A DNA stretch of 64,000 nt from Amphibalanus amphitrite. Taxonomy: Eukaryota. The position numbers and the translations under genes are program-made. Below the pieces are notes generated by a model. The model was not told the DNA's origin and searched no databases. It was given only the letters and a program-made list of their open reading frames with translations. Location: contig NW_024881521.1 of NCBI RefSeq assembly GCF_019059575.1, positions 665,297 to 729,296 of the forward strand, given 5' to 3'. How positions within the stretch are numbered: position 1 is the first letter of the stretch; the number at the start of each line of letters is the position of its first letter. Positions 3,225 to 30,600 of the stretch are shown here, one piece after another.

Positions 3225-3292
3225 GGTGATGATGGTGATGGTGATGATGACGATGACTATGACGATGACGATGACGATGAACTGCAGCTTGC
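3225..3292. repeat. Imperfect (GATGRY)n trinucleotide-phased repeat
   Basis: The sequence reads gatgatggtgatggtgatgatgacgatgactatgacgatgacgatgacgatga. Confidence 0.8.
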
Positions 3293-4290: not shown

Positions 4291-4371
4291 TTGGCTTCCA
4301 TGACCTTTTTGCAGTCCTCAGCATATCTCTCCTTGAGACCGGGCATAGTTGCTGCGATGGATTCCTTCAAC
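4291..4371 (-). CDS. Candidate internal coding exon (…LKESIAATMPGLKERYAEDCKKVMEA…) of an unidentified minus-strand gene
   Basis: The acceptor is CTTTTGACAG|G and the donor is GCCAA|GTAAGT. It lies within minus ORF 4287..4685. It is 81 nt long, entering in phase 1 and leaving in phase 2. No partner exons were found. Confidence 0.3.
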
Positions 4372-5034
4372 CTGTCAAAAGAAGACATGCCAAACATCAG
4401 CATACGATTATACACAAAAGCAAGAGGCCCCGGTCTCGATATTAGGTCGTATACCAGACGGAAGGGGATATCGCGACGCGTTGACCCTGCTACCAGTTGG
4501 CATTCACGCGATAGCTGCATACTGCAACGCGGAGCAGGCATTTCCGGTGGCACCAGCGGTATAACTGTGATTAACGACCCAAGACACCACACTGCCGAGA
4601 GGTTAACAGTCGCGCAGCACATGAACGAGGCATCGGCACGGGGCACCCGGCAGCGAACCATGGTTAGACAGTAAACACTATACACCGCCTTCCGGGTTCT
4701 ATGCCGGAGTCAGCGGATATAGCGGGTCCGCTCGAAAATCTGCCATCGAGCCGTCCTTACTCAGACTGTCTAGACAATAAACCTTACCGAGCCTGGCTAA
4801 TATTTTGAACCATGAGCCGTCCCTCGCTCTGTCTAGCCACATAGCCACCTATACCCTCTCCCGTCTGACCTGTTGAGCGGCCGCCGTATGACAGTCTTCT
4901 CCTCATCCAGTACCAGCTGTTTGGCCCGTTTGATGAGTGTCTGGGTACCACAGGGCAGGTGGGCCGCCAGATGTAGGTACACCGCCTGCCGGTCGTTTCT
5001 CCGCAGCTCCTGCTGACATCGTAGCTCGATACTG

Positions 5035-5390
5035 CAGCGGAAGGGGACGGGGAGAACGGGGGTTAATACACGCGGTGATTCCAGTCCCTGATCCCTGGAT
5101 CGAACAGCATAAGATCGATACCTATGACTGGGCGGAAGGAGAAAGAGGAAACGGAGGTTTACTACACATGGCTATTCGAGTCCCTTGGTCGGACAGTATT
5201 GCGTCGATAATGAGGCCAATGGGAAAAAGGGGGAGGGAGGTGGGTTGATACACTTAGCGACCCCAGCGTCCAGCCCCTGGGTCGGTCAATACCAAGTCGA
5301 TAATGAGGCAAATGCGAAGGGAGGGGAGCGGTGAGCTAATATACTGATTCCCTGGATCGAAACAGCTCGATACATCAACGGACGGGTACA
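5035..5390. repeat. Tandem repeat, ~110-bp unit x ~3 (GATAATGAGGC-AATG-GAAGGG…TAATACAC…GATTCCC-TGGATCGAACAG)
   Basis: Three degenerate direct copies are visible by eye. Confidence 0.5.
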
Positions 5391-5575
5391 GGAATGGCCA
5401 AGGCATTGAGACGTGCTTCCGGGTCCTGTGGCACCGCATCGGTTGCTGAGCTGATATACTGGCATATGAAAGTACTGCTACATCATCACTCAACAACTGC
5501 AATTCAACATCTAAAAAGACTCAGTTTCCGAACACCAAGTCTCACCAGTCAACCTAGCTATCCCTCCCACCCGAC

Positions 5576-7370
5576 TCACTTGAGCAGCATCTTGTTGACC
5601 TCGGGCGTGAAGAACTTCATCTTTCCCTCTCCACTGCGACCGGCCAGCTCGGCGGCCGCCTTGATGGCGGTGACGAGCTGCGCCAGCTCCGGAGTCAGGT
5701 GCGGCAGGTCGTCCTCGGAGGGGCGGCGGCACCGCTCCGGCTCCGGCTCCGGCTCTCCCTCGGTTCCCTCCGGCTCGGCGCCCTCCTCCTCGTCCGAGCT
5801 GCTGCTGCTGTCGTCACCGCTGCTGTCGTCGCTGCTGCTGCTGTCGCCGCCGCTGTTACTGGACGAATTGTTGGCTGTGGGCAGAGGAGAAGTGGTCAAT
5901 TGTAATAAGGCTGGTCTTCGGGATGTTCCCAGGTGGCCCAGCAATAAAGCCGGCCGGCAATGGGCTTAGGGCTGGCTAAAAAGTCGGTCACGAAAGCGGT
6001 GTGAAAAAGGAAAAGTAAGTAGTTATGACTGAAAACTGAGCATAATTTTCAAGACATCGACTGTTGACGTTATAAAACCAGCGCTGAGTAACATTAGCCC
6101 TGCATACACTCTTGGCTGATTCAACTCACTGTTGGACGATGACGAGACCTTCCTGGCGGCGGGCGGGGGCGGCGGTGACGACCGCTCGGCACCCCCTGTC
6201 GCCGGCGACGAGCCGGCCTGGCGCGCCGCCGCCGCCACAACGTGGGCGATCGTCTCGTCCATCGAGTCGCGCGAGCCGTCATGACCGTTGGTCTGGGCGG
6301 TGCCATTCGTGGGGGCCTCCGCGGCTGGAAGGAGAGAAGATACGCGTCAGTTTATAATTCAAGTATGGATATGGTCACTGGAAGACGTGGGATGCAGACA
6401 GAGAATGAGGGAAAAGACAGGGAAGGACACATTAATCCGTCGGGAAAATCACAGAACGGGTGATTCCCTGTCGACCTGACACCTCAATTACTGCAGCAGG
6501 CAGCTTTGGAACGGGTAGCGTCCACAGCAGGAGCACGGTGACCTCATAAATCAAGGCACCGACTTTCTGACGCTCGACTACCCGCACTGCGTTATTTCGG
6601 TCCATGCCTCGCAACCTCGCAATCCCAACAACGGAAATGACCCTTTCAGTGGTGTTCGCTCAAGCAACGGCCGTTCACCTCCGCTTAAGTTGACAAAAAT
6701 AACACCAAGACGCCGCGCAGCAGACCGTACAGCCCGCCGTCTCCCCTAGCCCGACACCCACCAGCAGCTGTCCACGGCACTCCACTCCACACATTAATCA
6801 TTACATCCCAAAAAGCCCACATCTGAATCCGCGCCCACCGCGCATCATGAGTTCCAGTCCAATATAAGCGTGCCCTGACTTTAACTGGATTAGCGAGGAC
6901 ATTTGATCGTTTATGGGGTCATATAAATGGTTTACTCGATCATACTCTAGTCTCATAATCAGTACTCTAGATCATACTCGATCATGCCGAATAAAATCCA
7001 CAAATCCCAGCTTACCATTGACGGTCTCCGCCGCCGGTTCTGCCGCGGCCGCCGGTGGCTGAGCCGGGGGCGGCGTCTCGGCGGCCCGCTGCAGCTCTCT
7101 GTGCGCCTTCTTCTGCTCCAGCAGCTCCTTGACTGTCAGCGACGGCTTCTTCTTGAGCAGGCCGTCGATGGCGCGTCGTTTCTTCTTCTGTAGCAGGCTG
7201 GGGTCCTTCTTGGGCGGCCGGCCGAGCCTCTTTCGCGGCCGCTTCACACCGGGCTCCTGCTCCTCGCCAGTGGTGACGTCGTCGTCTGCGTCCGAGCTCA
7301 GCCGGCGCACCTGGCCGGGAGGGGGGGGGGGGGGAGGGGTGTCAGCATCGGCCGCTACCAACCGCGCCAT
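5576..7370 (-). CDS. Three-exon gene: AT-hook-containing, Ser/Asp/Glu-rich acidic nuclear-type protein (~282 aa)
   Basis: Exons on the minus strand are 7016..7370 (ATG at 7370), 6130..6324 and 5576..5874 (stop at 5576-5578). The donors are AATG|GTAAGC and ACA|GTGAGT. The acceptors are CTTCCAG|CC and CCCACAG|CC. All junctions are phase-1 consistent across three ORF-track frames (6972..7370, 6023..6262, 5576..5944). It has an AT-hook-like KRPRKRLGRPPKK, an acidic poly-Ser/Asp tract, and a C-terminal LTPELAQLVTAIKAAAELAG…FFTPEVNKMLLK. Confidence 0.55.
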
Positions 7371-8457
7371 TCACAGGTGTACACGCACATGCTCACCATG
7401 CAGACGGGCAGCGGCGGAAAACACACCGCCGCAGCTACAGTGCACTACGCACTGCTGTTGATAGCTTTACAACACAAAACACCCATACGCCGCTTGTGCC
7501 CGGCAGAATTAATGAAATCACAGAGTACCTAGCTTAACCCGCGCCCCAGTGGCGGTCTCAGCCAACTTCGCCCTAGTGAGGGGGGGGCATATGTTACCAC
7601 CCACCTCTAACTCAAAAACTAAGAGGGCTAGAAAGACGCGGTAAAAAGCAGTCGATAGCTCTCAATGTGTACGTTTGAAAGTATTTCAGTCATTTTTTAT
7701 CTTAGAGCAATATTGGGGTCACCAGAGGTCATCAAAGGTCAAAATCTGCCAATGGTCATTATATTTTTCAGAAAATATGCCGTTTTCTCAGGATCAATGG
7801 TAGCTAGAAAAACGCATGGAAAAGCAATCGATAGCTTTTGAACTCTTCTTTTGATAAAGTCATTATCAAAATTGACCTCAGGTCAACGGTTTAGCCTCCA
7901 GAGGGCAAAAACTCCAAAAATAGCTGTTTTTACGAAAAGTGTTTTTCGACAATAACTTTCGATTACAAAAAGCCACGACATTTTTATTGCCAGAATCGTG
8001 TTCCTCTCGCCGAGACGCGTCGAATGAACTATAATTTGACCTTGAAAGGTCAACTTGAAAATTTGACCTCAGGTCAAGGTCATGACCTGGCCGGAAAAGG
8101 TCATGTTGCATATCAATCGATGCGTCTCAACAAGACAAACACAATGAGACCATCTCCAGCGTTCTATCTCTTTCCAATCGCGAGTTATTGGCAAAAATCT
8201 GTTTGTAGCCTCAAATGACCTCGGATGACCTTTCTAGAGGCTATCAGCAAAAATGACACCTTGGTCATCACGGGTGGTCCAAATCATTGTGATTCTGAAA
8301 TATTTGGACTGTTCCTTTGCGTACACACGGATCTAGAGGCATTTTCATTTTTCTCCAATGACTTGTAATGGAAAAGTCACGCCACTGACCTGGCCTTAGG
8401 TCACAGATATAAAAAATCGGAGATATACAAATTGTAGGCGCTCATAACATCATGCAA

Positions 8458-8873
8458 TCCACCAAGTTAGAGGTGGCAAAATGTGGACCCGAGGACCCGG
8501 TCCAAAGAACCAGTCTGGACCCATATGGGTCCAGACCGGTTCCTGGAAATTTTCTGACGGGTCCAACCGGGTCCTAACATTAACTATACATCTTGCACAC
8601 TGCACATTATTGCAAAATATGAAGTGAATGAAGTGAATGTTTCTTTGCACACAGTAGCTCACGAGTATTCCCAGTGGGAAAAGGCTGTTTTACATGATGC
8701 AACTAATGATACCCACAAGTAGTTTGTATTAATTGACTTTTGGGGAACGGGTCCAACTGGTTCCGATTCCAACTAAGACCGGGTCCGACTGGTTCCAGAA
8801 ATGTCCAGCCGGGTCTGGTTCGAGTCTGGTTCCCAAAATTTTCATCTTTTGCCACCTCTACACCAAGTTTAAA
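8458..8873. mobile_element. Inner ~415-bp MITE nested in the 7534-9537 element
   Basis: The termini are ACCAAGTTAGAGGTGGCAAAA (8458-8481) and its inverted counterpart TTTTGCCACCTCTACACCAAGTT (8851-8873). Confidence 0.4.
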
Positions 8874-9113
8874 ACCTTTCTGACAAACACTGCAAGCTGG
8901 ACATGATTGCAAACTTTGTTTTAGGCTTGGTCAGTTAACTTGACCTGGTGACCTGACCTGACATGACCTGGGGTCAAAAATTTCACACATTGTCCAAAAT
9001 TGATGTACTAAAAGCTACCCCAAGCGGCGCGGCGCTATGCGCCGCGGTTTTTTATTCACACGCCAAAAACGCGACAGGGTGGTAACATATGCCCCCCCCC
9101 CCACTGGGGCGAA

Positions 9114-9532
9114 GGCCGCCCCACACTGGACCTCGCATGCGGGTTGCGAGTTTTTGGTTTTTCGGGTTTCTTTCAAATCAAATAATACAATCTAAGCTGA
9201 GTGACCCACAATACCATCTAACAAGCGAGTCTGCATGTTTTTAGCATGCGAGCCAACTTGCATCGCATTCCAAAAGTTGATTTTGAGTCAGCTTTAGATT
9301 TTCCCCGCTGCGAGGTCTGCGAGTTCTGCGAGGTTTGCGGGGTTTTCGTTGAAGTCGAATTTTGGTTGGTTGCACTGGTATTGCGAAATTTTTCTGAAGG
9401 TGTACCGGCTTCATTGCATTCATGAAGTTACCATAAGGGAACGGTCTAATCACTCTATGAATTAGTATTATGCCCTCAAACTCAAAACCCGCAAACTCGC
9501 AACCCGCATGCGAGGTCCAGTGTGGGGCGGCC
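9114..9532. mobile_element. ~420-bp foldback/MITE with a perfect 37-bp TIR (GGCCGCCCCACACTGGACCTCGCATGCGGGTTGCGAG)
   Basis: The 37-mer at 9114-9150 and its exact reverse complement ending at 9532 were read directly. It is followed by TTAA. Confidence 0.5.
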
Positions 9533-9713
9533 TTAAATCAAATCCACAAATATTAGCCAATCGAAAGTCCAGACACCACTAAATTTATTACCTGATGTTC
9601 CTGTAAAAGAACAATCAAAACACCAACAGACTGTCCCAGTGTCCAATGTCCGCTGTGTTGACCCTATACCACCTCAGGCTCCCGGAGGTGGTCCCCTTCC
9701 CGGCTCCACTGAC

Positions 9714-11098
9714 CCGTTTCCGTCTGGCGGGCGGCGGCCGGCCCGGGTCGGCGCCATCAATCAGCTCCAGCCGCAGGGCACCGCGGTTGATGTAGAACCC
9801 GCCGAACTCAGGACGCTGGTTGGACGGCAGGTCCTCCTCGTGCTGTCGAAGGAGATATTACGCAGGTCAGGTCACTAGGCCAGGTCACCCAGGTTAGGTC
9901 ACTCGGGTCAAAGCACTTCTTAGCTGTTGGCACAATAGGTTGGGTTTAATTTGACGTTATGTAAGTTTTCATACCTATGCACTTGCACTTATGTTAGGCT
10001 ATAGGCATTATAGCAGCAGAATTGCCAACTGCCCCTACAATAAGACCCATTGGCACTCTCAACCATTCGACACATAAAAATTCCGCTATGACCAATGTCA
10101 AATAAATACATCCACAGTTACAACAGCTAACTCAGTAAAATACCGAGTAGTCCACTGACCAACAGAGACTGTGTATTGGACACTAACCACGTCCGAGTTG
10201 TCGATGAAGGGGTCGTTCTCGTCGTACCCCTGGCCCAGCTCCGACACATCACGGTGCTTCTTACGCTGCATACCGTCACCGGTGCCCTGAGAAAACAGCG
10301 ATAGGAGAGGGGTCAGGTTTTGTTGAAGGAACCTGTGAAACAGCAGTGGGACGAGGGTAAGACGTCGTACTAATTTTAGGGTTTATCATTTAAAACGGAG
10401 AATATGGCATGGGGACAGCAGTTGTTTACAGGCACACCAGTGTATCAAAGCTGAGCTGTCAGGAGCACTATCAATCCAGTCGCTACGTCTGACCAGCTCC
10501 GCCTACCAGCGCGGGTAAACAGTAGTCTGGTTTTCCGTCGAGAGGTAGACACAACACAGGCCACTCAGTATCAGCTGACTGGCACCGTTCAACGATTAAA
10601 GCTACCTGGTCCGAGGTGAGGGTCGTCTACCCAAACATTTGTCCGTGCGAGTTATTTCATCGCGACATTGATCGCATGATTACGAAGGAAAAACATCCAA
10701 AACGTAATTAATATCATAGAATAGATCTGGATATTGCTGGAATAAAAGTTCCCTGATGCAGTGCGGACCCTACCTTCAAAAATAATCTTTAATATTTTGC
10801 TTCATCCGTGCTACTACTCAAAATCCAATCACATTTTTAAAGTTATCAAAAGTTGGCATGCGCTCTCCAGGAAACCGAACCAGTTGCATCACACTGTACC
10901 ATCTGTTCCATGATCTATTACGGACATACATCGCCCCAAACTGTAGGGGCTCAGACCCGGCCGTCTCCGCCGGCAGAGACTCACGTATTTCTCCTCGAAG
11001 CGTCGCGCAATCTCCTTGACATTGTCATCGCTGTCCCCGAACGGATCGTCGGGCGGGTGCACGCCGTTCGCCTTGACCTTGTGACGCACATGCTTCTC
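9714..11098 (-). CDS. Three consecutive phase-0 coding exons of an unidentified acidic (nuclear-type) protein. The gene is incomplete at both ends
   Basis: Minus-strand exons are 10985..11098 (EKHVRHKVKANGVHPPDDPFGDSDDNVKEIARRFEEKY), about 10191..10286 (GTGDGMQRKKHRDVSELGQGYDENDPFIDNSD) and 9714..9842 (HEEDLPSNQRPEFGGFYINRGALRLELIDGADPGRPPPARRKR). The acceptors are CGCGACAG|, TTTTCTCAG| and CTTCGACAG|. The donors are |GTGAGT, |GTGGTTAGT and |GTCAGT. Two exons were anchored by ORF-track arithmetic; the middle exon may be off by 1 nt. Confidence 0.45.
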
Positions 11099-11999
11099 CT
11101 GTCGCGCGAGAACGGGGGTAGGTACCGGTGATATTTAGAACAGGCAGCGGTCGCCCGGAGATGACTTCAGCACGAGGGAAGTCGTCCACCCGACATCCAG
11201 ATCATAACTGATACACTGGAGGTGAATTGTGCACCGAACAGACAATCGTTGGCAGGCACTGTTGGGCGTTAAAACATGACACTGAAGATAAAAACACCAA
11301 CAAACTGATACCGATAGGGGGTGGAAAATAACGAGAGCATTTCATTGAACTAAGAAGGCTTACCAAGGCAGTGAGAATAAACAAAAAAAAAACTATTCGG
11401 AGACCGTGTGGGAATTCCGATCAGTGAACAATGAACAAGGCATTATTAGCGAAATCCTACTAATTACATCGGCATTTAATCACCGACATTGGTTCATAAA
11501 CCAACTCCCAAGAGATAGTAATGAATGACCCTGTAGAAAAAAAGTCACTTATGGTAGCAATTGAGACGGGCGGGCGCCCCACAGTCCACACTGCACACCG
11601 ACGAACGAGGTCATATTACAATAATTAATGTAGATTGCAGGAATGAGGAACTGGACAATTGAATTAATGTTGTTATTTATGTGATAAACGGTGCACATGA
11701 AGTGTGTTGGCGGAGGTACAGCGAATAGGGAACAAGTTTGTGATCGTAGAATCCGTTCGAGAAATCTTTCAATTGGCTGAGAAGTGGTTAGATTGGCATG
11801 GAAATAAAATGCTGTTTTTAACATGAAATCCATTATCCAATTTTTACACCCACAAAAAGTCCACGCCGGTTTTCAGTCAGCACCCCCCCCCCCGCAGAAT
11901 ATCATCCGAAACCCCAGAAAGATGAGCGACGTTTGGATTCGTTCAGTAAGCACAAGTCATCTGTACTGAGCTACGACAGACACGTGTCGTTACGATGCA

Positions 12000-12900
12000 C
12001 ACTGGCACACCTGTCACCACCCTCCCTTCCTTCCCTGCCCTGCCCTCCGCCCGTCCCCCTCTAGCGCACACCTCCGGGCGCCGGCCGCCAGCCCGCTACG
12101 GCCGCCGATCAGCTGACCGGCCTTCCCCTCCCACCCCTCCCCGCCGCCGCCGCCGCCAGACCCATGACGTCACCCGCCAGTTCCCACTGAGCGGCGTACC
12201 CCCCCCCCCCCTCCGGCCGGCCGACGGCTCCGGTCACGGAGAGGGGGGGCACCTTTGTCCCTCTACGCCCGCCCGCCATCCGACCGCGCGCGGCGCGCCG
12301 CACACGATCGTACCGGCGGCGGCTCCCACGACCGCCGGCGGGCGTGCCACGCTCCGCCCCCGCCGCCGAGGCCCCGCCCCCGCCGCGTGGCAGCTCTCCC
12401 ATGACCGGGTCGGTACGATCGATAATGGCCCTGCACCCGGCGACCCGGTCCGAGCGAGCGGCACCCTCCGCTGACCCAGCCCGTCCGCCGTCCGTCACTC
12501 GCCGCCACCACCGATCACACCCGGCGGCACCGCCCCGGCCGGTCACGTGACCTGCACACGGCGACACCCGCCAGCGGGCCGGCGGCCGAGCGCGCCAGGT
12601 TTTACCGCCACCCGGTCACTTCTCTCCCGCCGAGCGACGTCCGGTGGCGGCCCGCCGGCTCTGAGCTCGGTCCCACTCGGTTCAACAGCACCACACCGTT
12701 CCTGGGAGCTGCACACCGCGCGGCCACAGAGAAAGTCGGCTTGATCGTCTGTCTGACCATCCCAGACCGGTGACGGTGACGGTCAGACGGCAGTACCGGT
12801 CGGCCCCCAGGCGGGAACAGAGGGACAGGCGACGGTGTCCGGCGGGCCACCGCGGCTGCGGGATCGATCACAGATGGGAGCTGGGTCTGATTGGAAATAC
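12000..12900. promoter_or_regulatory. CpG-island-like GC-rich block (~70% GC) with a palindromic CRE (TGACGTCA, ~12165) and a palindromic E-box (GGTCACGTGACC, ~12541). Candidate promoter/5' region of the upstream minus-strand gene
   Basis: CpG density is very high and ORFs overlap in all frames on both strands, which is typical of non-coding GC-rich DNA. It lies 0.9 kb upstream (in minus sense) of exon 10985..11098. Confidence 0.3.
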
Positions 12901-13530
12901 TGACAGCCAGAAAAGCACCGAGTGGGTGGGTTCAGGACAGGTCAGGTCAACTCAGTAATGTTAATTAAGTGTTTGTCCTAGACGACCAAACATAAAGGCT
13001 CATAGTATGGCTAAAATTAAACAAGTCCTGAATTCATTAATTATATATGAAAAGCATGAACAATGAATTTCTTCTAGTAGGGTAAGCATTAAAAATGAGG
13101 CATTGTGATTGACATAAGGTTCAGTGCTTTCCAAATTGCAGAGATTCTATAGGTAGTATTTAAGCAGCCAGTGGCAGCACCAGGTGAAGCCTCACAATAT
13201 GAGGTGCATGGTTTAATAAAATATAGATACTGCTGCAATAGAAAGGCAGGTTAGCATTGCAATTTAAATTGTCAACATGACAAAACAGAGCCCATCCATT
13301 ACAACCCAATTTGGCCCACATTCCACAGTATGCCCACTGCTCTCCCACTCCACAACCAAGTGAAAAACATGGCTGCTCTGGCTGCCATGGAGCAGGGACA
13401 CAGGATCACCATAGATATACCAGAAACCATGTAGCAATAGAGGAAAAATAAACCCAACACCAAGCAACATTGCACTGTGGCACCATAGCACACATCATTG
13501 GACGCAGAAAACTTTTCGCGCCACACTGAC

Positions 13531-15215: not shown

Positions 15216-16469
15216 CTTTTATTTGCGAGACATACAAGTATCATTTTTGGATTCAGGATGTCAAATAATTTAGAAAATATGAAAAATATATCAATGAAAT
15301 CTGCTTAGGACTTTATCTTGACATTTACCAAGTAATAATAGATAAAAGTGTATTTGGGCTGGGTCTGGCAGGTCATACTGATAATTTCACATTGAACAAT
15401 GGACTAATGATAATTTCCCAAAACAACAGACTGGCTGGCTAGCTGTGCTTGCTTTGCCTATATCCTGGATAATATACTACCAAAACTTATTATTCCATGT
15501 AATTTTGCATTGAAAAAGGCTCCTCAATGGGGGTCAAAATATTTGCCATCATTTAAATAAAAAATACATTTACTCTTGAGACTCTGAAAAGTATACCATT
15601 AACTTATCAACCTGAGTAAAAGATAAAATGACTTTAAAGTCCCACTTAATATACTACCAGTTATCAGAATATGCTAAGTTTCTATATAGGTTGATGCCTA
15701 TATTTTTGGGATGAACTATTGACTTAACAGTAGCCTCTGTGTTAGTGTCTAGTAACCTACTTTTCTGATGATCTGCGTAATTTTGATTGTTCTAGTTTGA
15801 TGTACACCTAAGGCTGAAGATACAGTGACTGGCTGTTGCTCCACCAGTGCTGCCGTGCAAAGGAAAAAAAGGGTGAGGTGATTTTAATACATTTTTTTAT
15901 ATTTATATCAAATGAAAGCTCTTTTCGAGGCGAATTCAATGGTGTAGTTCATAAGCATTATTGAATAAAAATTCATGCCGAAAATCTAAATTTGAAAGTT
16001 GGCATTAAGCCGTGAGTTGGAATGCCACACAAAATTGGGTTTTGGTCGTGTGGAAAAAAGCCGTGAAATCTCACCCTTTTTTTCCATGATCTTGAGTGCT
16101 GGCGATGCAATGGAAAAAAAGGGTGAGATAAAGCGTGCTCCGGGACTGAGAGTGCCTGTGGTGAAGAGTATTTGGCGAGTTTTAATTGACTGACAGTTTT
16201 TAAGGGCATATTTGGATATTCAGACAATGAAATAGCACTACAGTTTGTGAGCACGATTGCACAAGCATTTTTCATAATGTTAGGTCGCAAAAGCTTACTG
16301 ACAATTAGCCCGCCAATTTAAAAACCCACCAAATCCTCCTTACACATCGCCGTACTACGCGTAGTAAACAGCACGCGCGGGCGGCTGGCAGACGTCTGGC
16401 GCGCTAATCAAACGTAAAGCGAAGCAATTCTCCCCGAGTTGGTGCCTTTATCCCTGCCTTTTTACAAAT

Positions 16470-19400
16470 ATGGGTAAAAAACGCAAATCAATCTCATCCG
16501 CTGAGTGTGATAAAAAACGCAAGAAGATTTCGGAAGCGCCGACTGGCTCCGATTTCATCCGAAGGAGAGGAGTCGTACACGTTCGAGTGATTTGGGAAGA
16601 TAAGACCGCTGGTGAGTCACATTACTCGCCATTGAATGCACTGAAGTGTGAGGAAGAAATCGCTGTTGGGTCGCGGGTGCGAATGAGGCACGGAGGCCGG
16701 GAGTGGTTTGGAGCGGTGGCCAAGAGCTCCAAGACTCGCCAGAGCCTTGTGGAAGGTAAGGGACATTGACCCGATATGAAAGGCATGCCAACTCCTCAAA
16801 TTTTAGCTGATATGGGTTACAGGAGTAGCCAATTCAATTGTGTAGAGCACCATGGAATGTATAAAAATAATGCAGAGCTGCAGCGCCTTTGAGAAGGTTA
16901 CGTGTGAAAAAATGATATGTCGCTTATGCTATGCTAATGACAAAATGGCAATGCGTAGTGGTTCAGGAGACTGACAAAAAAAAAAATGTGTTCGGTGCAG
17001 AAATTCCGGATGATGATATGCCGCTGGCGATTGTACGTGAACGGCAAAGGTCATCTAATCCCGTGTCTGACAACCTCACCGATCTTGCCGGAAGCAGTTC
17101 GAGTTCCTGTCCCGTCCTTGATTCAGCAGCCCTGAGTCAGGTGAGAGAGCTAATTGTTCGTGACATTATCAACCTGTAACTTGTAAGCTGCATGAAGGCT
17201 CGCAGCAAAAGCGGTTAAAGATACTGATGTAAAATGGCATTGGAGATTTATCCATTAAAGCTTAATAAAGCGATAAATCGCATCAAATTTTGATTCTTAT
17301 GCTGTTCATTACATCAACACAATCTACGAGTAATATTCCATTAAGTGTTTGGGCATATTTTTGGCAACTCAAGACACTACGGTAGAAAAATAATAGCAAA
17401 TTAAGACCCGCTCCTTCAGTTGGTTATGGGAGTGTCGGATTTTTCGTTTCCTTCATAATGCTTGCAGATATTTCGTACAATCAATGATTTGACTTGTCAT
17501 GGATATCGATTAAAAAATACTTTTTTTGTACAGGTGCTCTCCCCGGCGGGCAGCTGCGACCCGGCCGCGGAGCAGGGCGTGACCCCGTCCGGTGGCCAGG
17601 GGACCTCTGCCGCCGAGCAGGGGACCTCTGCTGGAGAGCGGGCCGTGGAGCAGGGCGTGACCCCGTCCGGTGGCCAGGGGACCTCTGCCGCGGAGCAGGG
17701 GACCTCTGCTGGAGAGCGGGCCGCGGAGCAGGGCGTGACCCCGTCCAGTGGCCAGGGGACCTCTGCCGCGGAGCACGGGACCTCTGCTGGAGAGCGGGCC
17801 GTGGAGCAGGGCGTGACCCCGTCCGGTGGCCAGGGGACCTCTGCCGCGGAGCAGGGGACCTCTGCTGGAGAGCGGGCCGCGGAGCAGGGCGTGACCCCGT
17901 CCGGTGGCCAGGGGACCTCTGCTGGAGAGCGGGCCGCGGAGCAGGGCGTGACCCCGTCCGGTGGCCAGGGGACCTCTGCCGCGGAGCACGGGACCTTTGC
18001 TGGGGAGCGGGCCGCGGAGCAGGGCGTGACCCCGTCCGGTGGCCAGGGGACCTCTGCCGCCGAGCAGGGGACCTCTGCTGGAGAGCGGGCCGCAGAGCAG
18101 GGCGTGACCCCGTCCGGTGGCCAGGGGACCTCTGCCGCGGAGCACGGGACCTTTGCTGGAGAGCGGGCCGCGGAGCAGGGCGTGACCCCGTCCGGTGGCC
18201 AGGGGACCTCTGCCGCGGAGCAGGGGACCTCTGCTGGAGAGCGGGCCGCGGAGCAGGGCGTGACCCCGTCCGGTGGCCAGGGGACCTCTGCCGCGGAGCA
18301 GGGGACCTTTGCTGGAGAGCGGGCCGCGGAGCAGGGCGTGACCCCGTCCGGTGGCCAGGGGACCTCTGCCGCGGAGCAGTGGACCCCGACCGCGGAGCAG
18401 GGGACTTTTGCAGTGGAGCAGGGCGAGACTCCAGCCGCGGAGCAGGGTACCTCAGCCGCGGAGCAGGGCGGGACCCCAGCCGCAGAGCAGGGGACCTTCG
18501 TCGGGGAGCAAGACCCCTGGGCTGTGTCGACAGAGGTCGCGACTCATGACGTGATTGGTCTGACTGACATAAATAACCTAGTTGATCCGGGACCTTTTGA
18601 TTTCCTGCGACTCCTGGATACGTCCGGCAGTGACATGTCGTCATTCAACGATGTACCCCTCGCTGACCTATCGATTGCTTCCTCTGGTCCCTCTGGTACC
18701 GGCGCAGCAGGTGATAGTGACATGGCCCCTATGGCCCCGCCCCACCCACGTAGCGCCGCTCATGCGTCTAGCTGGGGAGGCTTTCCGACAGCACACACCG
18801 CAAATGTCGATCCAGACGACCCGAACCCACGGTCCATGGACTGCGGTGGAGATGGACTTGACGCTGCCTCGATTAGCACCCACGGGGCTTCTTCCTCAGT
18901 AGATGGGGCATCCGATGCTCCTCGTCCGACAACGGTGGGCAGTCACACGGGCGCAAAAAAACGAGCTCGTACTCAGGAACACCAAATTCTGGGCTTTAAA
19001 CAGAAGCATGCAGTCCGTCCCATGCCTCCTGCCTGCAGCAATCGCACGTGCTCATTCGGTTGTGCCACTCACTTCAGTGAAGAACAACGCCAGGCCATCA
19101 ACGAGGCCGTCAATTCACTTTCAAGGGAGGCTAGGATGCAGTGGTACGCCACTCACGTGCGAGACATTACTCCCATTGTCACTGACAGCCCACCACTCAC
19201 CAACACCGCATCTGCCAAGCGGCGCATCATCGCCTACCGTCTCCCTGTAGCTGGAGAACAGGTCGATCGAAGGGTGTGCAAGGAGTTCTGTCTCACAACC
19301 CTCGGCTTCGCAGCGAACAATGACGGTCCGATCATATCTGCCGTGGGACGACTCATCCCAAAGCAGGACAGGCGGGGGCGCGCGGCAAACCCGGTGGCAG

Positions 19401-20623
19401 CCAGACTCGAGGACGAGCTGCAGCGGCACATTGAGCGGTACCGTCCGATGGCACCGCACTACCGCTACCTGCACGCCCCCAGACGCCGATATCTCGCACC
19501 GGACCTCAACGCAGCTGTGATGTACCAGCAGCTTGTGGAGGAAAAGGGCAAGATCTGCTCTTACGAGCGGTTTCGCAAAGCGCTGCGAAGTGCCAACGTG
19601 TCGTTCGCTCGCTTAGGCCAAGAAGAGTGCGAGATATGTACTGCATTTGACCACCACGTGAAAACTTGCTTTGAACATGAGTCGTGCAGCACGTGCCAGG
19701 AACACGCCGCCCACCACGATCGCGCCGAACAGGCTAGGGCAGAGTACGCCCGAGACCGCGAAACCACAGCGTCAGCAGAGTCGCACCTGATTGTTTCCGT
19801 GGACATGATGAGGGTCGCTCTCCTTCCCATCCTCCCTCACAAAGTGTGCGTATTCACCCCGCGACTTGTAACTTACAACGAGACTTTCGCGCCGTTGGGA
19901 GGAAAGGGGGCTGTGTCCGTCTTGTGGCACGAGGGCGTGTCTGGCCGAGATGCACCAGACGTCGCTTCAACATTCATAAAGTTCGTGGAGCTGAACCACA
20001 ACACGAAACAGTTCACCTTCTGGGCAGATAACTGCTCTGCCCAAAACAAAAACTGGACCTTGCTCTCGGCTCTTCAAAATTGTGTCAACAGGAGCGATCT
20101 TGCAGTCAAAACCATCACAGTCAAGTTTTTAGAGAAGGGACATACTAGTATGTCTGCTGATGCGGTGCACCAGGTGGTGAGCAAAAAACTTTCAAAATCT
20201 AGTGTGCGTGTGCAAGACTTTCGGGACTACGTTGTGGCATGTGAGATGGCGGGCTCAGTGCATGTGATGGCGCCGGGAGATTTTTTCGATGTCAGCAGTG
20301 GGGTGAGCGCTACGAAGCTGAAGCGTCTCGCTGATGAGGAGAAGCGACCGCTCCTGCGGGAAATAAAGGTCGTTCAGGTGCGGCGGGACGACGACCGACT
20401 GTACGTGAAGGTTGTCCATGGGCACCCAAAGTGGTCGGCTTACGACCTTTTCAAAACAACTTTTATTCCATGTGAGCAGCCAGAGAGGCGAACGACTCCC
20501 AGGGGGGTTAACAAGGAAAAGTTGGCCAAAATCATCAACAACCTAACACCTCTTATGGATGGTCATAAGACCGCCTTCTGGCTATCCCTCAACGGGACAA
20601 ACGTCCGTGACCTGATGGGATAG
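16470..20623 (+). CDS. Three-exon gene. It has an N-terminal basic/NLS exon of unknown fold, a 26-aa tandem-repeat linker, and a C-terminal HTH + pogo-type DDE_1 transposase domain
   Basis: Exons are 16470..16755 (ATG; donor GAAG|GTAAGG), 16959..17140 (acceptor GCGTAG|; donor CAG|GTGAGA) and 17534..20623 (acceptor TTTTTTTTGTACAG|G; stop TAG). The phases are consistent. The ORF-track 'M' at 17462 is TTG inside the intron. DDE motifs were read directly: SVDMM (pogo NmDEtg), FTFWADNCSAQNKN (pogo lLDNcssH) and FLEKGHTSMSADAVHQ (pogo fLPpNtTsklQPlDqg). Confidence 0.5.
17566..18510 (+). repeat. 78-bp coding minisatellite, ~11 units encoding AAEQGVTPSGGQGTSAAEQGTSAGER, degenerating at the 3' end
   Basis: A direct read shows a near-perfect 78-bp periodicity. 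Units differ by single synonymous or conservative changes (S/F, Q/H) and a few 57-bp short units. Confidence 0.9.
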
Positions 20624-20639
20624 GCTGCTGCCTAGCCGT

Positions 20640-20960
20640 CAATAACACGAAAGATGGCTGAGCTGACCAGTGAAATGTTTGAAGTGGTGTTCAGTTTGTA
20701 GTCGTATCGACTGTTTTGATGTTTTATAGCCGTCAATACTACGGAAAATGGCTGAAATGTTTGAATGTTTGTATTCGTGTCGACTGTTTGTATCGACTGT
20801 TTTCATGTTTGTAGCCGTCAATACTACGGAAAATGGCTGAAATGTTTGAATGTTTGTAGGTATTCGTGTCGACTGTTTGTATCGACTGTTTTGATGTTTT
20901 ATAGCCGTCAATACTACGGAAAATGGCTGAAATGTTTGAATGTTTGTATTCGTGTCGACT
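20640..20960. repeat. Tandem repeat (~115-bp unit x ~2.7) immediately 3' of the transposase stop
   Basis: The unit is GCCGTCAATACTACGGAAAATGGCTGAAATGTTTGAATGTTTGTATTCGTGTCGACTGTTTGTATCGACTGTTTT(G/C)ATGTTT(T/G)TA. Confidence 0.8.
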
Positions 20961-21263
20961 GTTTGATGTTTTAGCAGGATTCCGTAATACAGGAATGACG
21001 AACTATTTTGTTTAATTCTGTATAAGGTTTAATGTGGTTAATGTTTAAGACATGTAATAGGTAGGTAATTACGGACTATCAGCTATGATAAAATGGCATT
21101 TTCCCAAACCTAGGATGCAATATGCAGCCATCTAGGCATGCAGACTAATTGCGTATTATTCGTCGGACGAATATGATGTCTACCACGTCCGCGTCCTACC
21201 AGTATCAACTTAATGAGACCAACCGCCCGCCCTTAAGCTAGGTCAAACACTAGTTAAACCCAG

Positions 21264-21291
21264 ACATTCATTCATTCATTCATTCATTTAC
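21264..21291. repeat. (CATT)n microsatellite
   Basis: A direct read shows cattcattcattcattcattcatt. Confidence 0.9.
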
Positions 21292-22438
21292 GCGTCTACC
21301 CTTTTCTTCCACACCGCCAAATGTTTAATAGTTCGTGGCAAAAAGCCGTGAAATCGCTTGATCACCTGACGGCTTTTTTCCACACCGCTTGTTGGAAATT
21401 TCGCAAGCCAGTTACAAAGGAAAAAAAAAGATAGGCATTTTAAGCTTATCTAAGAAAACATTACACGATTATATTAGTATCAGAAGAAACATTGAAACAT
21501 GACGTTTTGTTTGGTACCAAAATCGTCATTCTGACGTGTGGCACTTTAAAGTTATAACTCATTTTTGGTCGCGACAACCTTTTGGTCCCTCCTGTGAAAT
21601 CAATTTTTGGCCAGACAGGATCTCACCCTTTTTTTCCTTTGCACGGCAGTGTGACATTAGCGTTCATTATGTTGGTGTAGCATAAATTTTTATTATAAAT
21701 GGTCACATTTTCTATTGGCAATTACTTAATGGGCAGGGTAGGATGATTTTTGATGTCAAACAAATATTGAACTTTGTAATGAGGTCGCGGGTTGGTTGAC
21801 CACAGGCGCAGCTGGATGGCTATGTATGATACCTACTGTCCCACTGTTGAATGGGATGACTGTGATGTCAAATTTTTATCTTTGGGTGAGATGTTGGGCT
21901 CTAATTTTTTCAGGTAAAATTTATTTTCTTAAGCTCAGACATTATCTTATCAAACCTAACCTTCCCTTATCTTAAGTCTCTACCAAACCTGCTCTTCACC
22001 TGTCTTACATATATTCATTCAAACCTTACCTATTACTTAATTTGTTGGGTGAAAAGGACTTGGGGGTCGGGTTGGATTTCATTTGGTTATGTTTCAGCTA
22101 CCTTGGCATCTCGCCAGTTTTCATTTGGCATCATAAACCATCATTCTGCCGCGATAAGGGCATTCAGCGGTGATCTCATTGAGCTTAAAATAAGGGACAT
22201 ACGTTTGTTCCTCTCCAACGTGATATATGGACATTGACTACCAGAAACAAAAATATTGAAACTTCTGATGTTGCCTGTAACTTCTATCTGTTGCATGGTG
22301 ATGACATTTAAATTAGCCATATCTAATCATTTTACTAAAACTAATTGTGCAATTCACAGAACTCTCAGGATTTGCACTTGTTTTGTAATGCATAACAACA
22401 TGTTCAATATTGTCTTGTTACAGACCAAATAGGCCAAG

Positions 22439-25069: not shown

Positions 25070-27085
25070 ATTGCCCTATTGCCGTCCGCCTAATGTTGCC
25101 ACTGTCGCGGCCGCGGGTCTTCGTGACAAAAATACACGCTGCTCAGAGCCGGGAGCGCCTTGTTTTGTGGGATAGAGGGGTGAGGTTACGAGAGTTTAGG
25201 AGTCAGAGAGGGTGACGAAAATGAGGGGCAAGGGAGGGACAGGGGGCTTGGCTGCAGCTGGTGGTTTTGCCAGTGAATCTGGTTCGGAGGTAGTACGAAC
25301 GCCGATTTCATGCGAAATTGACTGGGCTATCAGGGTGTCCAAATGGAAATCGCTGTCATTAGTACGCTCTGTCTGTACAAACTATTTGTCGTTGATACTC
25401 GGTGCTCAAATATTCGTAACAGCTGTATGTAACGACGATATCGTTCGCGCTCACTTGGAACGCATTGCCCCCTACGTAGCTCCGCGAAAGCTAACGTGGC
25501 TAACGCAAGAGTGGCGCCACCTGTTTGACCAGTCTAGGGTACAAAGCTCTGGTTTACGTCCTCGCCGCTAGTCATTTGATGGATAAACTCAACTGACGTG
25601 AACCAGTGAAGCTTAGCTCCAGTCAGCTTTTGCTCAAGTATGATTGCACTTGTATCATGCTTTGCTCAAGTATTAAAAACCTATTCTGATTCCTTGTCCT
25701 TGCACCTTCGCAGACTCAGACGCCCATTTGGTGCACCATAAGCCAAAGTCTCTTGGCAGACGCCGTGCTTGATTAGTTATCGTGTTTGTATGCTCTTGTC
25801 ACTGCCAATCGGGAAGTTTGCTGTCGCTATTTTTACCATGCACGTCCTGTGGTATCTTCATTGGTCCAGCGACCACCGGTCATGAGTTCGTGAGATAGAT
25901 AACTACTGGTCAGCAGGCCGCCGAATTCTGGCTCGGCTGGTGGCTGGGGATGGGATGAATAGAACCCAGCCCTCAGCTGAAGATCAGAAGCTGAAACAAA
26001 TGCCTGAAGTATAGTTTTATCATGACATTATACACACCTGGCTGGCTGGGTTAGTATTTGGCTGGCTAGAACCTAACCTAACCTACCTGGCATGACGTGG
26101 CTGTCTGTGTATGCCTGATGTCTCATATGCAGTGTGCTGTTATCAGTCGTCAATTTTTTTTAGTGGGAGGGAGAAGTCCCATGTAACTTGTCTCACTGAT
26201 GATTAAGTGCGGTCCTGGTATCGTTCGCAAGGCTCATCAGAATCTCGCTGTTAATAATTGATCCTACATGTATGTATCGAGCAAACGGTCTGGATCATTT
26301 ATACTCTCGTTGCCACAACACTGCATTACTGCTCACAGATCGATGAGGGCCACGCTGTCGAAATCGCACCTCTATGCTGCATATCATGTGACAGGCAATG
26401 CATACCTGCCATCCGATCATGAGTTCTCGGGTTAATGCTAGTGCACCGTTACTGTCGAAATGCATAGATGTGCTTATAAATCGCAGACTGCTCTACTCAG
26501 TTCCCCAGTCATGTGTTTAGGCTTACCCCTCCAATGTCTGTCTCAACATGATTCAGTGTCATCAGGACGCCGCTCCGTTACTCAGAAATAGGTACGTCAT
26601 GGCGGCATTTGGATGATGTCATGCGGTCGCTCGACTGGAAATGGGGAAGATCTGTGACCGCTCTGCGTGTCATATAATTTGTATACACCGGTGACTTTTT
26701 TCGCAAGAACGATGCCAGAGCTGAAAGGTGAGTATCGGGCTGATGGGTTGGGACTTATGAAGCATCGTATGTGACGCATGGACTACTCGTTCGTATGTGA
26801 CCCTAACTGTGGATTGGGAACTCTGTCACGTGGGAAATGGTTTGGTGTTTTAGTTTACAGAGACGAAAGTTTTACGTTTTTACAGCTGTTTTGTTTACAG
26901 GTGTTCAGCCGGAGTAGTGCTGACTGCTGGTGTGTGGAAGGAAGATAAACCTGGTGTGTGGAAGGAAGATAAACAACCGAAGAAGCCGCTACTTTGCTTG
27001 GAAGACGATAGCCATCAGTTGAAGCGTTCGTACTGCGACCTCGGTAAGTAAATGCATCGTGAAAAGTCGTGTTGTTTCACGTGAG

Positions 27086-27218
<133 letters not shown>

Positions 27219-27553
27219 GCTATGCCGAGCTGCATCGATTTTACCGGCGCCCGGCGGGTCGCGACAGGCCCGGCCGCCGTCGCCCGCCGCCGCCAAGGTC
27301 GCGCCATGCACCCACCGGTCACCGGCCCCGCCGCGCGGTGCCTGTCTGTTCAGGCGGCAGCGTCGGCGTCGGTCGAGACGGGCACGTCCTCGGCTCGCTC
27401 AGCGGTGCCGGGTGCGCTGTGACGAATCCCGGCCTAGCTGCCGTGCCGACGGGACCGACCGGCTGTGTGCCTGGAATCGCCCCTGCTCCGGCGGCGGCGC
27501 CGACACGCCCTTTCGAGCGGCCGGCTGGCAGCCACTCGCTCGGCCGCGGCGCC

Positions 27554-27659
27554 ATGAGCAAGAGACGCCGCTGTCCGCCGGAGGAGCCCCAGTGCCGGTC
27601 CCGGTCTCGGTCTCGCTCCCGCTCACGGTCCCGGTCTGCCTCGCCGCTGGACTGCCGAC
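27554..27659 (+). CDS. Candidate first coding exon of an RS-domain-like protein (MSKRRRCPPEEPQCRSRSRSRSRSRSRSASPLDCRQPG|)
   Basis: A true ATG at 27554 lies inside a GC-rich island directly downstream of (CT)63. The donor is CCTG|GTAAAT. The downstream exons were not resolved. Confidence 0.25.
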
Positions 27660-30600
27660 AGCCTGGTAAATCCGCCGCCCCCGGCCCCCTGAGTGCGCCC
27701 TCTCGTCATGTGGTGCAACTCCGGCGGCCCGTGCCGCGTGGTCCGCCCGCCCCGTGACCGGCCGTGGTGTATGCTCAATGATAGCAGGTCCTGTAGAGAA
27801 TGTCGTTATCAGTGGGCAGTATTGGGTGCGCCAGGGGGCGGCTGCTCGGAGTTGCACTGCACTGACGTTTGGACGTCCCGGTCTCTGAACGTGTCATGTC
27901 AGAGGACCGTAGTTTCTCCATCAGAGACCCCGCAGAAGGTGTGTGAGTGTGCATGTGTGCGTGTGTGTCTGTCGTCCTGTGTCCGCCCCTGCTCGGGTCC
28001 GATAGCGGAATGCGGGAGTGGGCGTGTCGAGATCGGTCGGGCGGGCTGTGTGGTCACACGGCTCATTGTGGTATAGGCTGGGGCTCAGTGGGCGGCAGAC
28101 GGTAGACGCTCAGGTGAGTATATCGGTCCCTTGTCTTTTACTGTCTGATTGCTAGTCCAGGCAAATATGTCGACCTCCAGACTGACAACTGGGTACTGAA
28201 TGTCCGACCTTGGTATGACTATCTCCCATAACGAGTAACGACGCCCTCCCCCTGATTGCCCCGCTCAGGTCGTGTCGCCGTATAAATTGTACCGTGTCGC
28301 TCTGTTCTGTTTATATTCGCAATCGCTGTGAGTTATACATTGCACAACGTGGTGGTCCCTGTGCGCTGGCGGTTGTCATGTGGATATTTCACCACCATAG
28401 TGCAAGCTGCCAGCGTTGGGCGCCCTGCTTATGCTAAGAGATCGCAAACTGATGTGCTTGGACAACATCATTATAAAAGTTTCTATTCCAGCCTACTTGT
28501 GAAAGGATATGTGAATCTTGGGACGTATAAGGCATCGTAATTATTTCTGAAGATAAAGTAGTCTGGAACTTTTATTGTGTTTGTAGTTGATACGATACTA
28601 CATAAATATCTTTCATTTTTACAGCTGCCATTGTGATCGGTCCGACCAAAGTTCGCCGAGCTCCGTTTTAACTTTTACTGCCTCTACACTCTACAGCCCT
28701 GTGTCCCGCCGCTGCGGGCGGTCTGTGCGGCAGCGGCGCCGTCCGCAGCGTGGCCGCCGGGCCGTGACCGTCCATTCCAGGCTGGCGGGACTCCCCGGGC
28801 TGTCAGAACTGTCCTACCCCTCCCCCGGACCGAGCCGGGCTGGCGCTGTCACCGCTCCGTCGCTAATAGCCCCCACTGACGCGGCCGGCCGGAGCGCTGC
28901 GGTCCCTTGCAGCGGGCAACCAGAGGTCATGCTTCTGCCGGGGACAGACACCGGTTGGACTGGTATGAGGTGTGATCAAGTCCAGCATAGTCCGACAGAC
29001 TGCAGACTGGGACGACGTTCAGACTGTCTCAGTGCGGGTACTGTCCCAGGCTCCAGAGTTCCAGGTCTGAAGCTGTGGATCCCGAGTCGGCGTCTTTTCC
29101 ATGGCCAGGTCGTTCTGAATGCTAATCAGTGGCCTAACATTGAGTCCATGTCTGAGCAGGCTGCATGAAGTATTGACCCTGTCTGAGCCAGCCATGACGG
29201 TGCGAGTCTGGGCTATTCACGGAAACGCCTCCGGGCGGTAACATCATTACATTGCAGGTTCGGGGAACCCGTGAGCGGCGTCACAGGTGTCCTTGATAAG
29301 CATAAGGTCTGGTGGCTACATTACTCCTGTTGGTAACCATTTGCGCCTTGCGGCCAGATAATGTGTAGTTGCGCTGCCAATATTCCCCAAACTCTTTGAG
29401 GAGCAGCGGTGCTGGCTGCAGACAGCTTCGAGCTCCTTATCAGATGTCGAGATGTCCTCTCAGTGGGGTGCTGTCCGCGATAGACCTTGACGTCTCAGCT
29501 GCTGAGCTTTATCAAAAGGCTCTGACATCTGACATCCGGCGCTCGCCCCGTCGTCCGTGTGGTAGGAGCTTATGCTCACAACTCTCAGGCCGGTTGCCGT
29601 GCTGACTTGGTTATGATCTCATCCATCCGCCTCATCTATATTTATAGTCCACGCTCCTCGAAGTGCGCCGCTCGACGTTGAGCAATCCGGCCGCTCGTAC
29701 GAGCCTCGACCACCACTGCAGCGCTGGCCGGCTTCCATCTCCGGCCGCGGCCTGTCCGCACGCTGCCGGGATGAGGTGATCCGCATACCTACCAAAACCG
29801 CCTGCAGTGCGTTGGGACTTCCCCAGCCTCCCAGAGCCGGAGCTGATTCACGGATTTGCCCAATGCCATCTCATCTGGCGGATGCCCGCCCTGGCCGGGC
29901 GGACGGCGCCGCCCCTCCGCGCGGTTGCGCCACCTCGTGTCCGTCGACAGAGGGCGGTCTGCCGGTCCGACGGCCGCCGTCCGAACAGCACAGTCGGGCG
30001 AGCCGCCGACTGGGCCGGCTGCGTACGGAAGTACGGGACGGACGGCAGCCGACTGTACGGACGGTGACGGGTCGGTCGGTGTACGGATCAGGTGAGCCCC
30101 GGGGACTGCCGAGCTGGCTGATCCGCGATCTTACTACGAGGGTGCCGTGAGGGCTGGGGTTGGAGCCAAGGCTGCTTTACCACTAGCGGTGTTGGGTTAG
30201 GACGAAACTCGGTTTCAGTGGTCTTTGTTTGGGTCGGTAACCCAGGTAACAATCGGCGTGCCTGGTTCTATCGGAACCCTAGATCTGACGCACATATCAC
30301 AGGATGTGGAGTCGGTTCACCCTCGTTCGCACTGTGGTGCTATGCTATTCCGCCGTAGCTGTTGTGACGTGTCGTCCGATGACCTTGAAAGCACCCAGCA
30401 GCAGCCCGGCATGGCGCCGGGTGGGCCGCGCAGCCGGACCCCTGGCTGCTGAGCTGCAGACAGTGACAAACTATCGTCGGGTGACTGGCGAATGGCGAGT
30501 GGATCCAAGCACCCATCCACCCGCCTGAATGGCATGCATTATGATTAGATATACCTATCATATAATCCAAGAAAGTATGGAAGGTCAGTTGCCTGAACTC

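Follow-up and report, generated by a model that had tools for sequence, protein, structure and literature searches.

Sola1 was reportedly named as a transposon superfamily by Bao and co-workers in 2009, and Sola transposases are said to have been described there as DDD enzymes. Curated bivalve Sola1 elements have a mean length of 5445 bp (PMC10294476). According to PMC3845634, the insect Sola1 terminal inverted repeat (TIR) begins with GGACCGT, and a 4-bp target-site duplication (TSD) with a preference for AWWT is given, via Bao et al. (2009), as a hallmark of Sola1. The RNase H-like core of one member, Repbase Sola1-1_AP, appears as family E.10 in the fifth supplementary file of Majorek et al. 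(2014; PMC3985635); its sequence runs ...VAVFDLEKV...FSFYSDNCGGQNRN...FLERGHTQS. Our searches for structures of, or biochemical work on, Sola1 found no solved relative and no biochemical study. The present analysis concerns a 64,000-nt stretch of contig NW_024881521.1 of the barnacle Amphibalanus amphitrite, referred to below as the window, in which a preliminary description had recognised a TIR-bounded transposon with a spliced, pogo-type transposase gene.

The analysis covers the anatomy of this element, its family membership, the fold and conservation of its protein, and its other copies and relatives. We conclude that window positions 15850–21649 very probably represent a structurally intact, autonomous cut-and-paste Sola1 transposon of A. 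amphitrite. For the most part this is a reclassification, from an atypical pogo element to an ordinary Sola1 element, in which the supposedly pogo-diagnostic motifs become Sola1 signatures. Positions of all features of the element are collected in Table 1.

Family assignment and catalytic core

The element encodes a predicted protein of 1171 amino acids (aa), whose sole match in Pfam was DUF7869 (PF25273; 30.5 bits, cut-off 26). The same domain was matched in 48 of the 50 sequences of the family alignment A1, which comprises the window protein and 49 relatives and served as the family profile. The closest protein relatives (62–72% identity) come from ENA metagenome assembly contigs; among the 71 homologs found, those with names are "uncharacterized proteins" of barnacle, brittle star and starfish.

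When the Sola1-1_AP core was itself compared with Pfam, it matched DUF7869 only (E 1.1e-5), which identifies this Pfam family as the transposase core of Sola1. A literature search on "DUF7869" found no paper. Direct comparison of the Sola1-1_AP core with the window protein gave a BLASTP E of 1e-13, and its comparison with the family profile gave an hhalign probability of 99.4% (E 2.2e-21, 117 columns). FDL, DNCGGQNRN and LERGHT of Sola1-1_AP were placed in register with VDM, DNCSAQNKN and LEKGHT of the family, and both share the signatures D...DNCxxQN(K/R)N...LE(K/R)GHT. The Sola1-1_AP fragment stops before the third Asp, and the direct alignment covers the first two Asps only. Controls run against the same profile reached 3.6% (Sola2-1_HM), 0.3% (Sola3-1_HM), 0.1% (human TIGD1) and 0.6% (mariner). 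With a length of about 5.8 kb, the element is long, as are the curated bivalve Sola1 elements. The family as a whole amounts, at 50% clustering, to 22,304 representatives at E ≤1e-3 and 3,974 at E ≤1e-30, and the link between DUF7869 and Sola1 helps with the annotation of animal genomes and metagenomes, where some 22,000 clusters go by the label "uncharacterized proteins".

An AlphaFold2 model of residues 618–1171, built on the 50-sequence alignment, had a mean pLDDT of 90. Its secondary structure elements follow the canonical order beta1-beta2-beta3-alpha1-beta4-alpha2-beta5-alpha4, and the core is compact, without an insertion domain between beta5 and alpha4. Three aspartates of A1, D282, D357 and D401, correspond to D899, D974 and D1018 of the window protein. 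The first two are invariant and the third is conserved in at least 90% of the sequences, followed by an invariant H404. The model places D282 on beta1, D357 right after beta4 and D401 at the start of alpha4; the spacing is 75 residues from the first to the second aspartate and 44 from the second to the third. A DDD triad on an RNase H-like fold, as looked for in a Sola1 transposase, is thus predicted by the model. A sequence search of the PDB with the transposase returned no match at E ≤10. The residues of a CxxC...CxxC...H cluster occupy invariant or near-invariant columns of A1, and the cluster probably binds zinc.

In recognising a DDE/D-type transposase at the C-terminus, encoded by a spliced gene with a repeat linker, the preliminary description was right. 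Its assignment of this transposase to pogo does not hold. According to that proposal, the element would be an atypical pogo/Tigger member of the Tc1-mariner-pogo group, with a DDE_1 core, acquired introns and foreign N-terminal modules. Pogo/Tigger and Tc1/mariner do have in common with the window element a compact RNase H-like DDE/D core lacking an insertion domain, and the TIR-bounded cut-and-paste architecture. The motifs quoted as diagnostic (SVDMM, FWADNCSAQNKN and FLEKGHTSMSADAVHQ), as well as the quoted N-terminal segment, were found in the protein, and the likeness of DNCxxQ to DNAxxH and of HTSxxxxD to TSxxQPxD is superficial. Against pogo, none of the 50 family members matched DDE_1, DDE_3, HTH_Tnp_Tc5, HTH_Psq or CENP-B_N at E ≤1; one relative gave a non-significant match to Transp_Tc5_C (E 0.018). 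For the window protein, no match to DDE_1, DDE_3, rve, HTH_Tnp_Tc5, Psq or CENP-B was obtained even at E ≤10. Pfam likewise found no CENP-B, HTH_Tnp_Tc5 or Psq domain in its N-terminal 142 aa or its C-terminal 707 aa. The CENP-B and Tc5 DNA-binding domains of pogo/Tigger are thus lacking. The human TIGD1 core, used as a positive control, matched DDE_1 at 6.4e-38, yet showed practically no profile similarity to the family (see the hhalign values above); that of the mariner core was likewise negligible.

The DD44D spacing and the introns further separate the window element from pogo/Tigger and Tc1/mariner, as does the lack of a TA duplication at nine junctions. Left flanks end in GTG, GCT, GCG and GCG, and right flanks begin with TGT, AGT, AAT and AAA. 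The left edge of L002, one of the related elements described below, does read TA, with 2 nt of flank present there. The TA target-site duplications expected by the preliminary description are likewise not seen in the flanks of the window element. We therefore consider a pogo origin improbable in the extreme; the absence of a significant DDE_1 match is also the outcome that the preliminary description had itself named as speaking against it.

Element ends, relatives and flanking bases

The perfect 28-bp inverted repeats reported previously stand: the two copies of CTGCCGTGCAAAGGAAAAAAAGGGTGAG form a 100% complementary pair, and the repeat has two matches in the window at ≤3 mismatches, where shuffled sequences give an expectation of 0. 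The end pair reads CTGCCGTGCAAAGG...CCTTTGCACGGCAG and encloses the transposase gene, in agreement with the earlier view of a TIR-bounded DNA transposon. The "CAGTG/CA leader", which had been counted as part of the repeats, does not belong to them. Its bases (15845–15849 and 21650–21651) are not complementary, and since four diverged relatives cease to be similar precisely at CTGCCG (left) and CGGCAG (right), these bases are external to the element.

Inside the TIRs, eight of the nine matches to the subterminal motif in the window are located within about 290 bp of either element end. Those on the left include a palindromic pair of 20 nt (16068–16087 and 16110–16129). Subterminal arrays of an equivalent kind are present in the related elements L003, L004 and L005, and the GGAAAAAAGCCGTGA and GGAAAAAAAGGGTGAG repeats are putative transposase-binding sites. 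Between the gene and the right end, a shorter unit related to the 85-nt tandem repeat was found at 20633–20661.

Five related elements, L001–L005, all have the ends CTGCCGT...ACGGCAG, and subterminal repeat arrays are common to them as well. Terminal CTGCCGT was present in seven of seven related elements with a visible end, down to 35% aa identity. This lower limit is represented by the P0021 family, the left end of which begins with CTGCCGTACTCTGGCAGAAAGAAG. Three copies of this family are 99% identical and have three different left flanks, from which it follows that the clade has been mobile recently. The preliminary description had proposed a search for other copies, and besides the TIR-bearing relatives L001–L005 this yielded L006 (ENA ERZ23498364, 1574 nt), which is 97.5% identical to window 16023–17610, introns included. 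Substitutions number one in exon 1, and four and nine in the two introns. L006 represents a second copy or else this element as present in another barnacle sample. No convincing TIR pair was seen on contig L008. A non-LTR retrotransposon open reading frame (ORF; Exo_endo_phos and RVT_1) and a DEAD-box fragment were noted on two contigs with distant relatives (L008 17577–17671 and L007 5574–5840), which are therefore eukaryotic repeat-rich DNA.

The flanks of four elements could be compared at both ends (Table 1). Pooled over these, 9 of 16 positions match, against 4 expected (binomial p 0.0075), and the two youngest copies, both with intact TIRs, account for 6 of 8 (p 0.004); these are the window element and L011, a complete copy of the P0021 family. 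L007 was omitted from the count, its imperfect end placement giving either 3/4 or 1/4. These values are compatible with a 4-bp Sola1 duplication. In both young copies the mismatch falls on the first base, and an alternative reading is a 3-bp duplication free of mismatches, with one extra base on the right. GTG (15847–15849 and 21651–21653 of the window) and ATA (250–252 and 8076–8078 of L011) recur right after one extra base, T and A, respectively. The same geometry is found in two families that are 35% identical, and this one-base offset of the right junction could reflect asymmetric end processing.

Other arrangements were tried and rejected. A 2-bp TSD (TG/TG) is seen in the window only and not in L003 or L005, a terminus beginning with the "CAG..." leader exists on the left side only and has no corresponding right ends, and no TSD of 8–9 bp was found. 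The bases CAG(C/T)G or CAGAGCG do precede CTGCCG in three of the four close relatives whose left flank is in view. In L005 the sequence ACGGCAG-AGCG-CTGCCGT resembles a right end abutting a left end across 4 nt. Possible explanations of the left-flank pattern are a target preference, a scar of tandem or nested insertion, or asymmetric end processing.

Several observations weigh against the assignment to Sola1 or against an intact, autonomous copy. Identity to the Sola1-1_AP core is 27–30%. The termini of the window element share only CCGT (positions 4–7) with the insect GGACCGT given in PMC3845634. Not one of the four flank pairs is identical over 4 bp (matches range from 3/4 in the window element and L011 to 2/4 in L003 and 1/4 in L005), and none conforms to AWWT. 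L006 is the sole further copy fragment of the exact family that was seen. Finally, the two introns belong to a predicted gene model, in which splicing is deduced from the sequence alone.

The low identity, the different termini, the flanks off AWWT and, in addition, the extra N-terminal domain would suit a distinct superfamily, as yet unnamed, to which Sola1 is the sister group. Against such a superfamily stand the 99.4% probability of the alignment with Sola1-1_AP, in which every signature motif is in register, and DUF7869 as the only Pfam match of both. CCGT is retained at positions 4–7 of the termini, and the flanks are compatible with a short duplication of about 4 bp. We regard a sister superfamily as quite unlikely. 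The window element has TIRs, as Sola1 elements do, and is in our view a well-preserved new member of a barnacle-associated Sola1 lineage with distinct termini and an extra N-terminal barrel.

An intact-looking Sola1 copy that is no longer mobile, i.e., a recent relic, is a tentative but serious possibility. The 4-bp flanks of the window element differ at one position, a single other fragment of the exact family was recovered, and the gene is a predicted one. On the other side, the two TIRs do not differ, the ORF runs uninterrupted over 3516 nt, all invariant residues of the family are kept and the other copy is 97.5% identical. With its perfect TIRs, open 1171-aa ORF and intact triad, the Sola1 copy could therefore be a starting point for studies of Sola1 transposition.

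Gene structure and the N-terminal barrel

The three exons (Table 1) join in frame across two GT-AG introns and end in a single terminal stop. Three exons and two introns had also been given in the preliminary description, but the protein has 1171 aa instead of 1140. L001 contains a gene of the same build. Its exon 1 is of equal length (286 nt), its exon 2 has 128 nt compared to 140 nt, in the same phase, and both intron positions and phases are common to the two elements. The introns of L001 (513 and 607 nt, GT-AG) are unalignable to those of the window element, and its open frame encodes 858 aa. In L001–L005 the exon-1 peptide precedes the transposase ORF. It was also found in the copy fragment L006, and P0009, a barnacle protein annotated by NCBI (LOC122382234; BLASTP E 3e-13), has it at its N-terminus.

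For exon 1, dN was 0.17 and dS 1.5–1.7 in comparisons of the window element with L001 and L004, which corresponds to a dN/dS of about 0.1. In the transposase region pN was 0.19–0.24 and synonymous sites were saturated; between L002 and L003, dN/dS of the transposase was 0.12. By these estimates, purifying selection acts on the exons.

The 26-aa repeat linker described before is present, with about 10.5 copies (17563–18385, 95–96% identity, one unit of 57 nt). Tandem repeats separate the N-terminal part from the transposase in all full-length relatives. In P0001–P0003, P0006, P0007 and P0009, Pro/Ala/Gly/Thr-rich tandem repeats that are unrelated in sequence occupy the linker position. The position of the linker is thus conserved, and the repeats in it evolve fast and are presumably disordered.

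From this architecture the preliminary description had concluded that the gene is chimeric and possibly a recently domesticated fusion. Exon 1, which evolves under purifying selection, recurs in seven further TIR-bearing or related elements and in a barnacle RefSeq protein, L001 has both introns in the same positions, and the repeat linker takes the same place in full-length relatives, all of which speaks against this view. A domesticated host gene, in which a transposase fusion has taken up a cellular role between old repeats, would account for an intact ORF under purifying selection, for an added reader-like domain at the N-terminus, and for the annotation of the paralogous P0009 as an ordinary gene. 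It would leave unexplained the perfect TIRs (28/28) and the subterminal arrays at both ends, the occurrence of the same gene inside TIRs with differing flanks in L001, L003 and L005, the second copy with 97.5% identity, and a further related element end within the same 64-kb window. Moreover, purifying selection between diverged lineages is typical of active transposon families. Domestication is accordingly very unlikely, and the gene is best regarded as that of a Sola1 transposon.

What distinguishes the barnacle-associated lineage within Sola1 is the additional conserved exon for an N-terminal beta-barrel, together with the hypervariable tandem-repeat linker. The barrel was modelled with AlphaFold2 on four sequences (mean pLDDT 73, about 80–86 in the core) and is predicted to have five strands. 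Foldseek ranked the Tudor domains of ARID4B and RBBP1 first (probability 0.90 and 0.77), then Sac7d, SspB and SH3; the best E of 0.32 is weak. Pfam gave no significant match for the barrel, the value for one member being E 0.088 with BAHCC1-like_Tudor, and a profile search of the PDB with the barrel returned nothing relevant. W42, D44, G48, H51, Y52, R69, V70, W79 and G81 are invariant in eight sequences. Among them, W42, Y52 and W79, together with H51 and D44, are compatible with a putative aromatic cage for methyl-lysine or methyl-arginine. The W/F/G-rich segment had previously been called reader-like. As a description of the predicted fold class, an SH3/Tudor-like barrel with a weak resemblance to chromatin readers, this is reasonable, but membership in the Tudor family, for which the Foldseek match is weak, is not established.

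A search of 336 fetched proteins with a hidden Markov model of the barrel detected P0009 and two exon-1 ORFs only. Since most of these proteins were called from one ORF, an upstream exon would go unnoticed in them, and the absence of the barrel elsewhere is for this reason only suggestive.

Chromoviruses carry a chromodomain on their integrase. The window protein resembles these in combining a small reader-like barrel with a DDE-type enzyme, and tethering can be suggested by analogy only. A C-terminal Tudor domain is found on the integrase of Gypsy-10_Ec32, where it was called the first Tudor domain reported on any transposable element (PMC12477816, 2025); the barrel of the window protein, in contrast, is N-terminal and belongs to a DNA transposase. 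One may speculate that the barrel is a genuine Tudor-type reader of chromatin or DNA, which tethers the transposase and biases its landing sites, and that the right junction undergoes asymmetric end processing. We consider this combined proposal doubtful. If true, the barrel would be a counterpart, on a DNA transposon, of the chromovirus chromodomain, and the barrel of the barnacle clade is the only feature of the element that might be new biology.

Taking these features together with what is established for DDE/D cut-and-paste transposases, we infer the following course for DNA binding, catalysis and a possible present activity of the Sola1 element. The basic N-terminus would take the transposase into the nucleus. 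There, the helical and zinc-cluster region upstream of the core would bind the CTGCCGT-terminated TIRs and the GGAAAAAAG(CC/GG)GTGA subterminal repeats, and the two element ends would be paired (synapsis). D899, D974 and D1018, with a divalent metal, would then excise the element and join its ends to the target with a short stagger, which is about 4 bp in Sola1. More speculative are a role of the barrel in tethering this complex to chromatin or DNA and one of the repeat linker as a flexible spacer.

Feature positions and neighbouring sequences

Table 1. Features of the window element, related elements and flanking bases. Positions are those of the window unless a related element is named, in which case they refer to its own sequence.
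Feature	Position	Strand	Remarks
Whole element, very probably a Sola1-superfamily DNA transposon	15850–21649	+	5800 bp; delimited by perfect TIRs and by the stop of similarity to L001, L003, L004 and L005
Left TIR, CTGCCGTGCAAAGGAAAAAAAGGGTGAG	15850–15877	+	28 nt; terminal CTGCCGT common to L001–L005 and the distant P0021 family
Right TIR	21622–21649	-	Complementary to left TIR at 28/28
Left subterminal repeats, GGAAAAAAGCCGTGA-type and GGAAAAAAAGGGTGAG-type	16001–16129		Motifs at 16001, 16052, 16070 (-) and 16112; presumed transposase-binding
Exon 1	16470–16755	+	286 nt, residues 1–95; Lys/Arg-rich N-terminus (GKKRK...KKRKK), then conserved beta-barrel
Five-strand small beta-barrel, Tudor/SH3-like	16548–16733	+	About residues 27–88; predicted fold
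Intron 1	16756–17000	+	GT...AG, 245 nt
Exon 2	17001–17140	+	140 nt; conserved (I/V)PDDD(M/V/L)PLA motif
Intron 2	17141–17533	+	GT...AG, 393 nt
Exon 3, including stop codon	17534–20623	+	Residues 143–1171
Tandem-repeat linker	17563–18497	+	Residues about 152–464; 78-nt (26-aa) units to 18385, then degenerate 21–45-nt units
Conserved Sola1 transposase region	18959–20620	+	Residues 618–1171; 71 homologs; AlphaFold2 pLDDT 90
CxxC...CxxC...H cluster, presumed zinc-binding module	19628–19714	+	C841, C844, C860, C863, H869; directly upstream of core
RNase H-like catalytic core	19784–20197	+	D899 (19802–19804), D974 (20027–20029), D1018 (20159–20161); DD44D
3' non-coding tandem repeat	20704–20965	+	85 nt x 3
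Right subterminal repeats, GGCAAAAAGCCGTGA (+) and GGAAAAAAGCCGTCA (-)	21335–21385		Inverted pair
L001, element	1476–7255		Ends CTGCCGT...ACGGCAG
L002, left end	3		
L003, element	1126–6848		Complete, TIRs 93%
L004, right end	7038		
L005, element	7689–13365		43%-identity relative
Flanks of window element			AGTG / TGTG, 3/4 positions equal
Flanks of L011 (complete P0021-family copy)			TATA / AATA, 3/4 equal
Flanks of L003			AGCG / AGTA, 2/4 equal
Flanks of L005			AGCG / AAAA, 1/4 equal
Left-end flank motif, window	15845–15849		
Left-end flank motif, L003	about 1121–1125		
Left-end flank motif, L005	about 7676–7688		

Apart from the Sola1 element, a second one, related to it, has its left end on the forward strand at 62804–64000. 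There, ...gtctgtctt is followed by CTGCCGTGAAAAGGAAAAGAAGCGTAACTCG; the element begins with CTGCCGTGAAAAGGAA... and is cut off by the window end. It contains GAAGCGTAACT subterminal motifs and a palindrome at about 63120–63160. From about 63320 to the window end, a tandem repeat of 57–60 nt has a forward frame, GSPIPVLAGRTAV..., that is similar to the Pro-rich linker of P0009. No exon-1-like ORF was seen between the TIR and these repeats, and this second element may have arisen by deletion or belong to another lineage.

A large exon of the major vault protein is located on the forward strand at 33601–36018. It matches Vault repeats and MVP_shoulder in Pfam, and its identity with "major vault protein-like isoform X6" of A. 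amphitrite is 100%, which places the window in the genome of that barnacle. A 975-aa ORF on the reverse strand (51773–54700) gave a Mucin-like Pfam match (E 1.8e-16) and is probably an exon of a host gene. Two blocks stand out by their G+C content, 12001–13000 (0.71) and 27001–28000 (0.66), compared to a background of 0.33–0.55.

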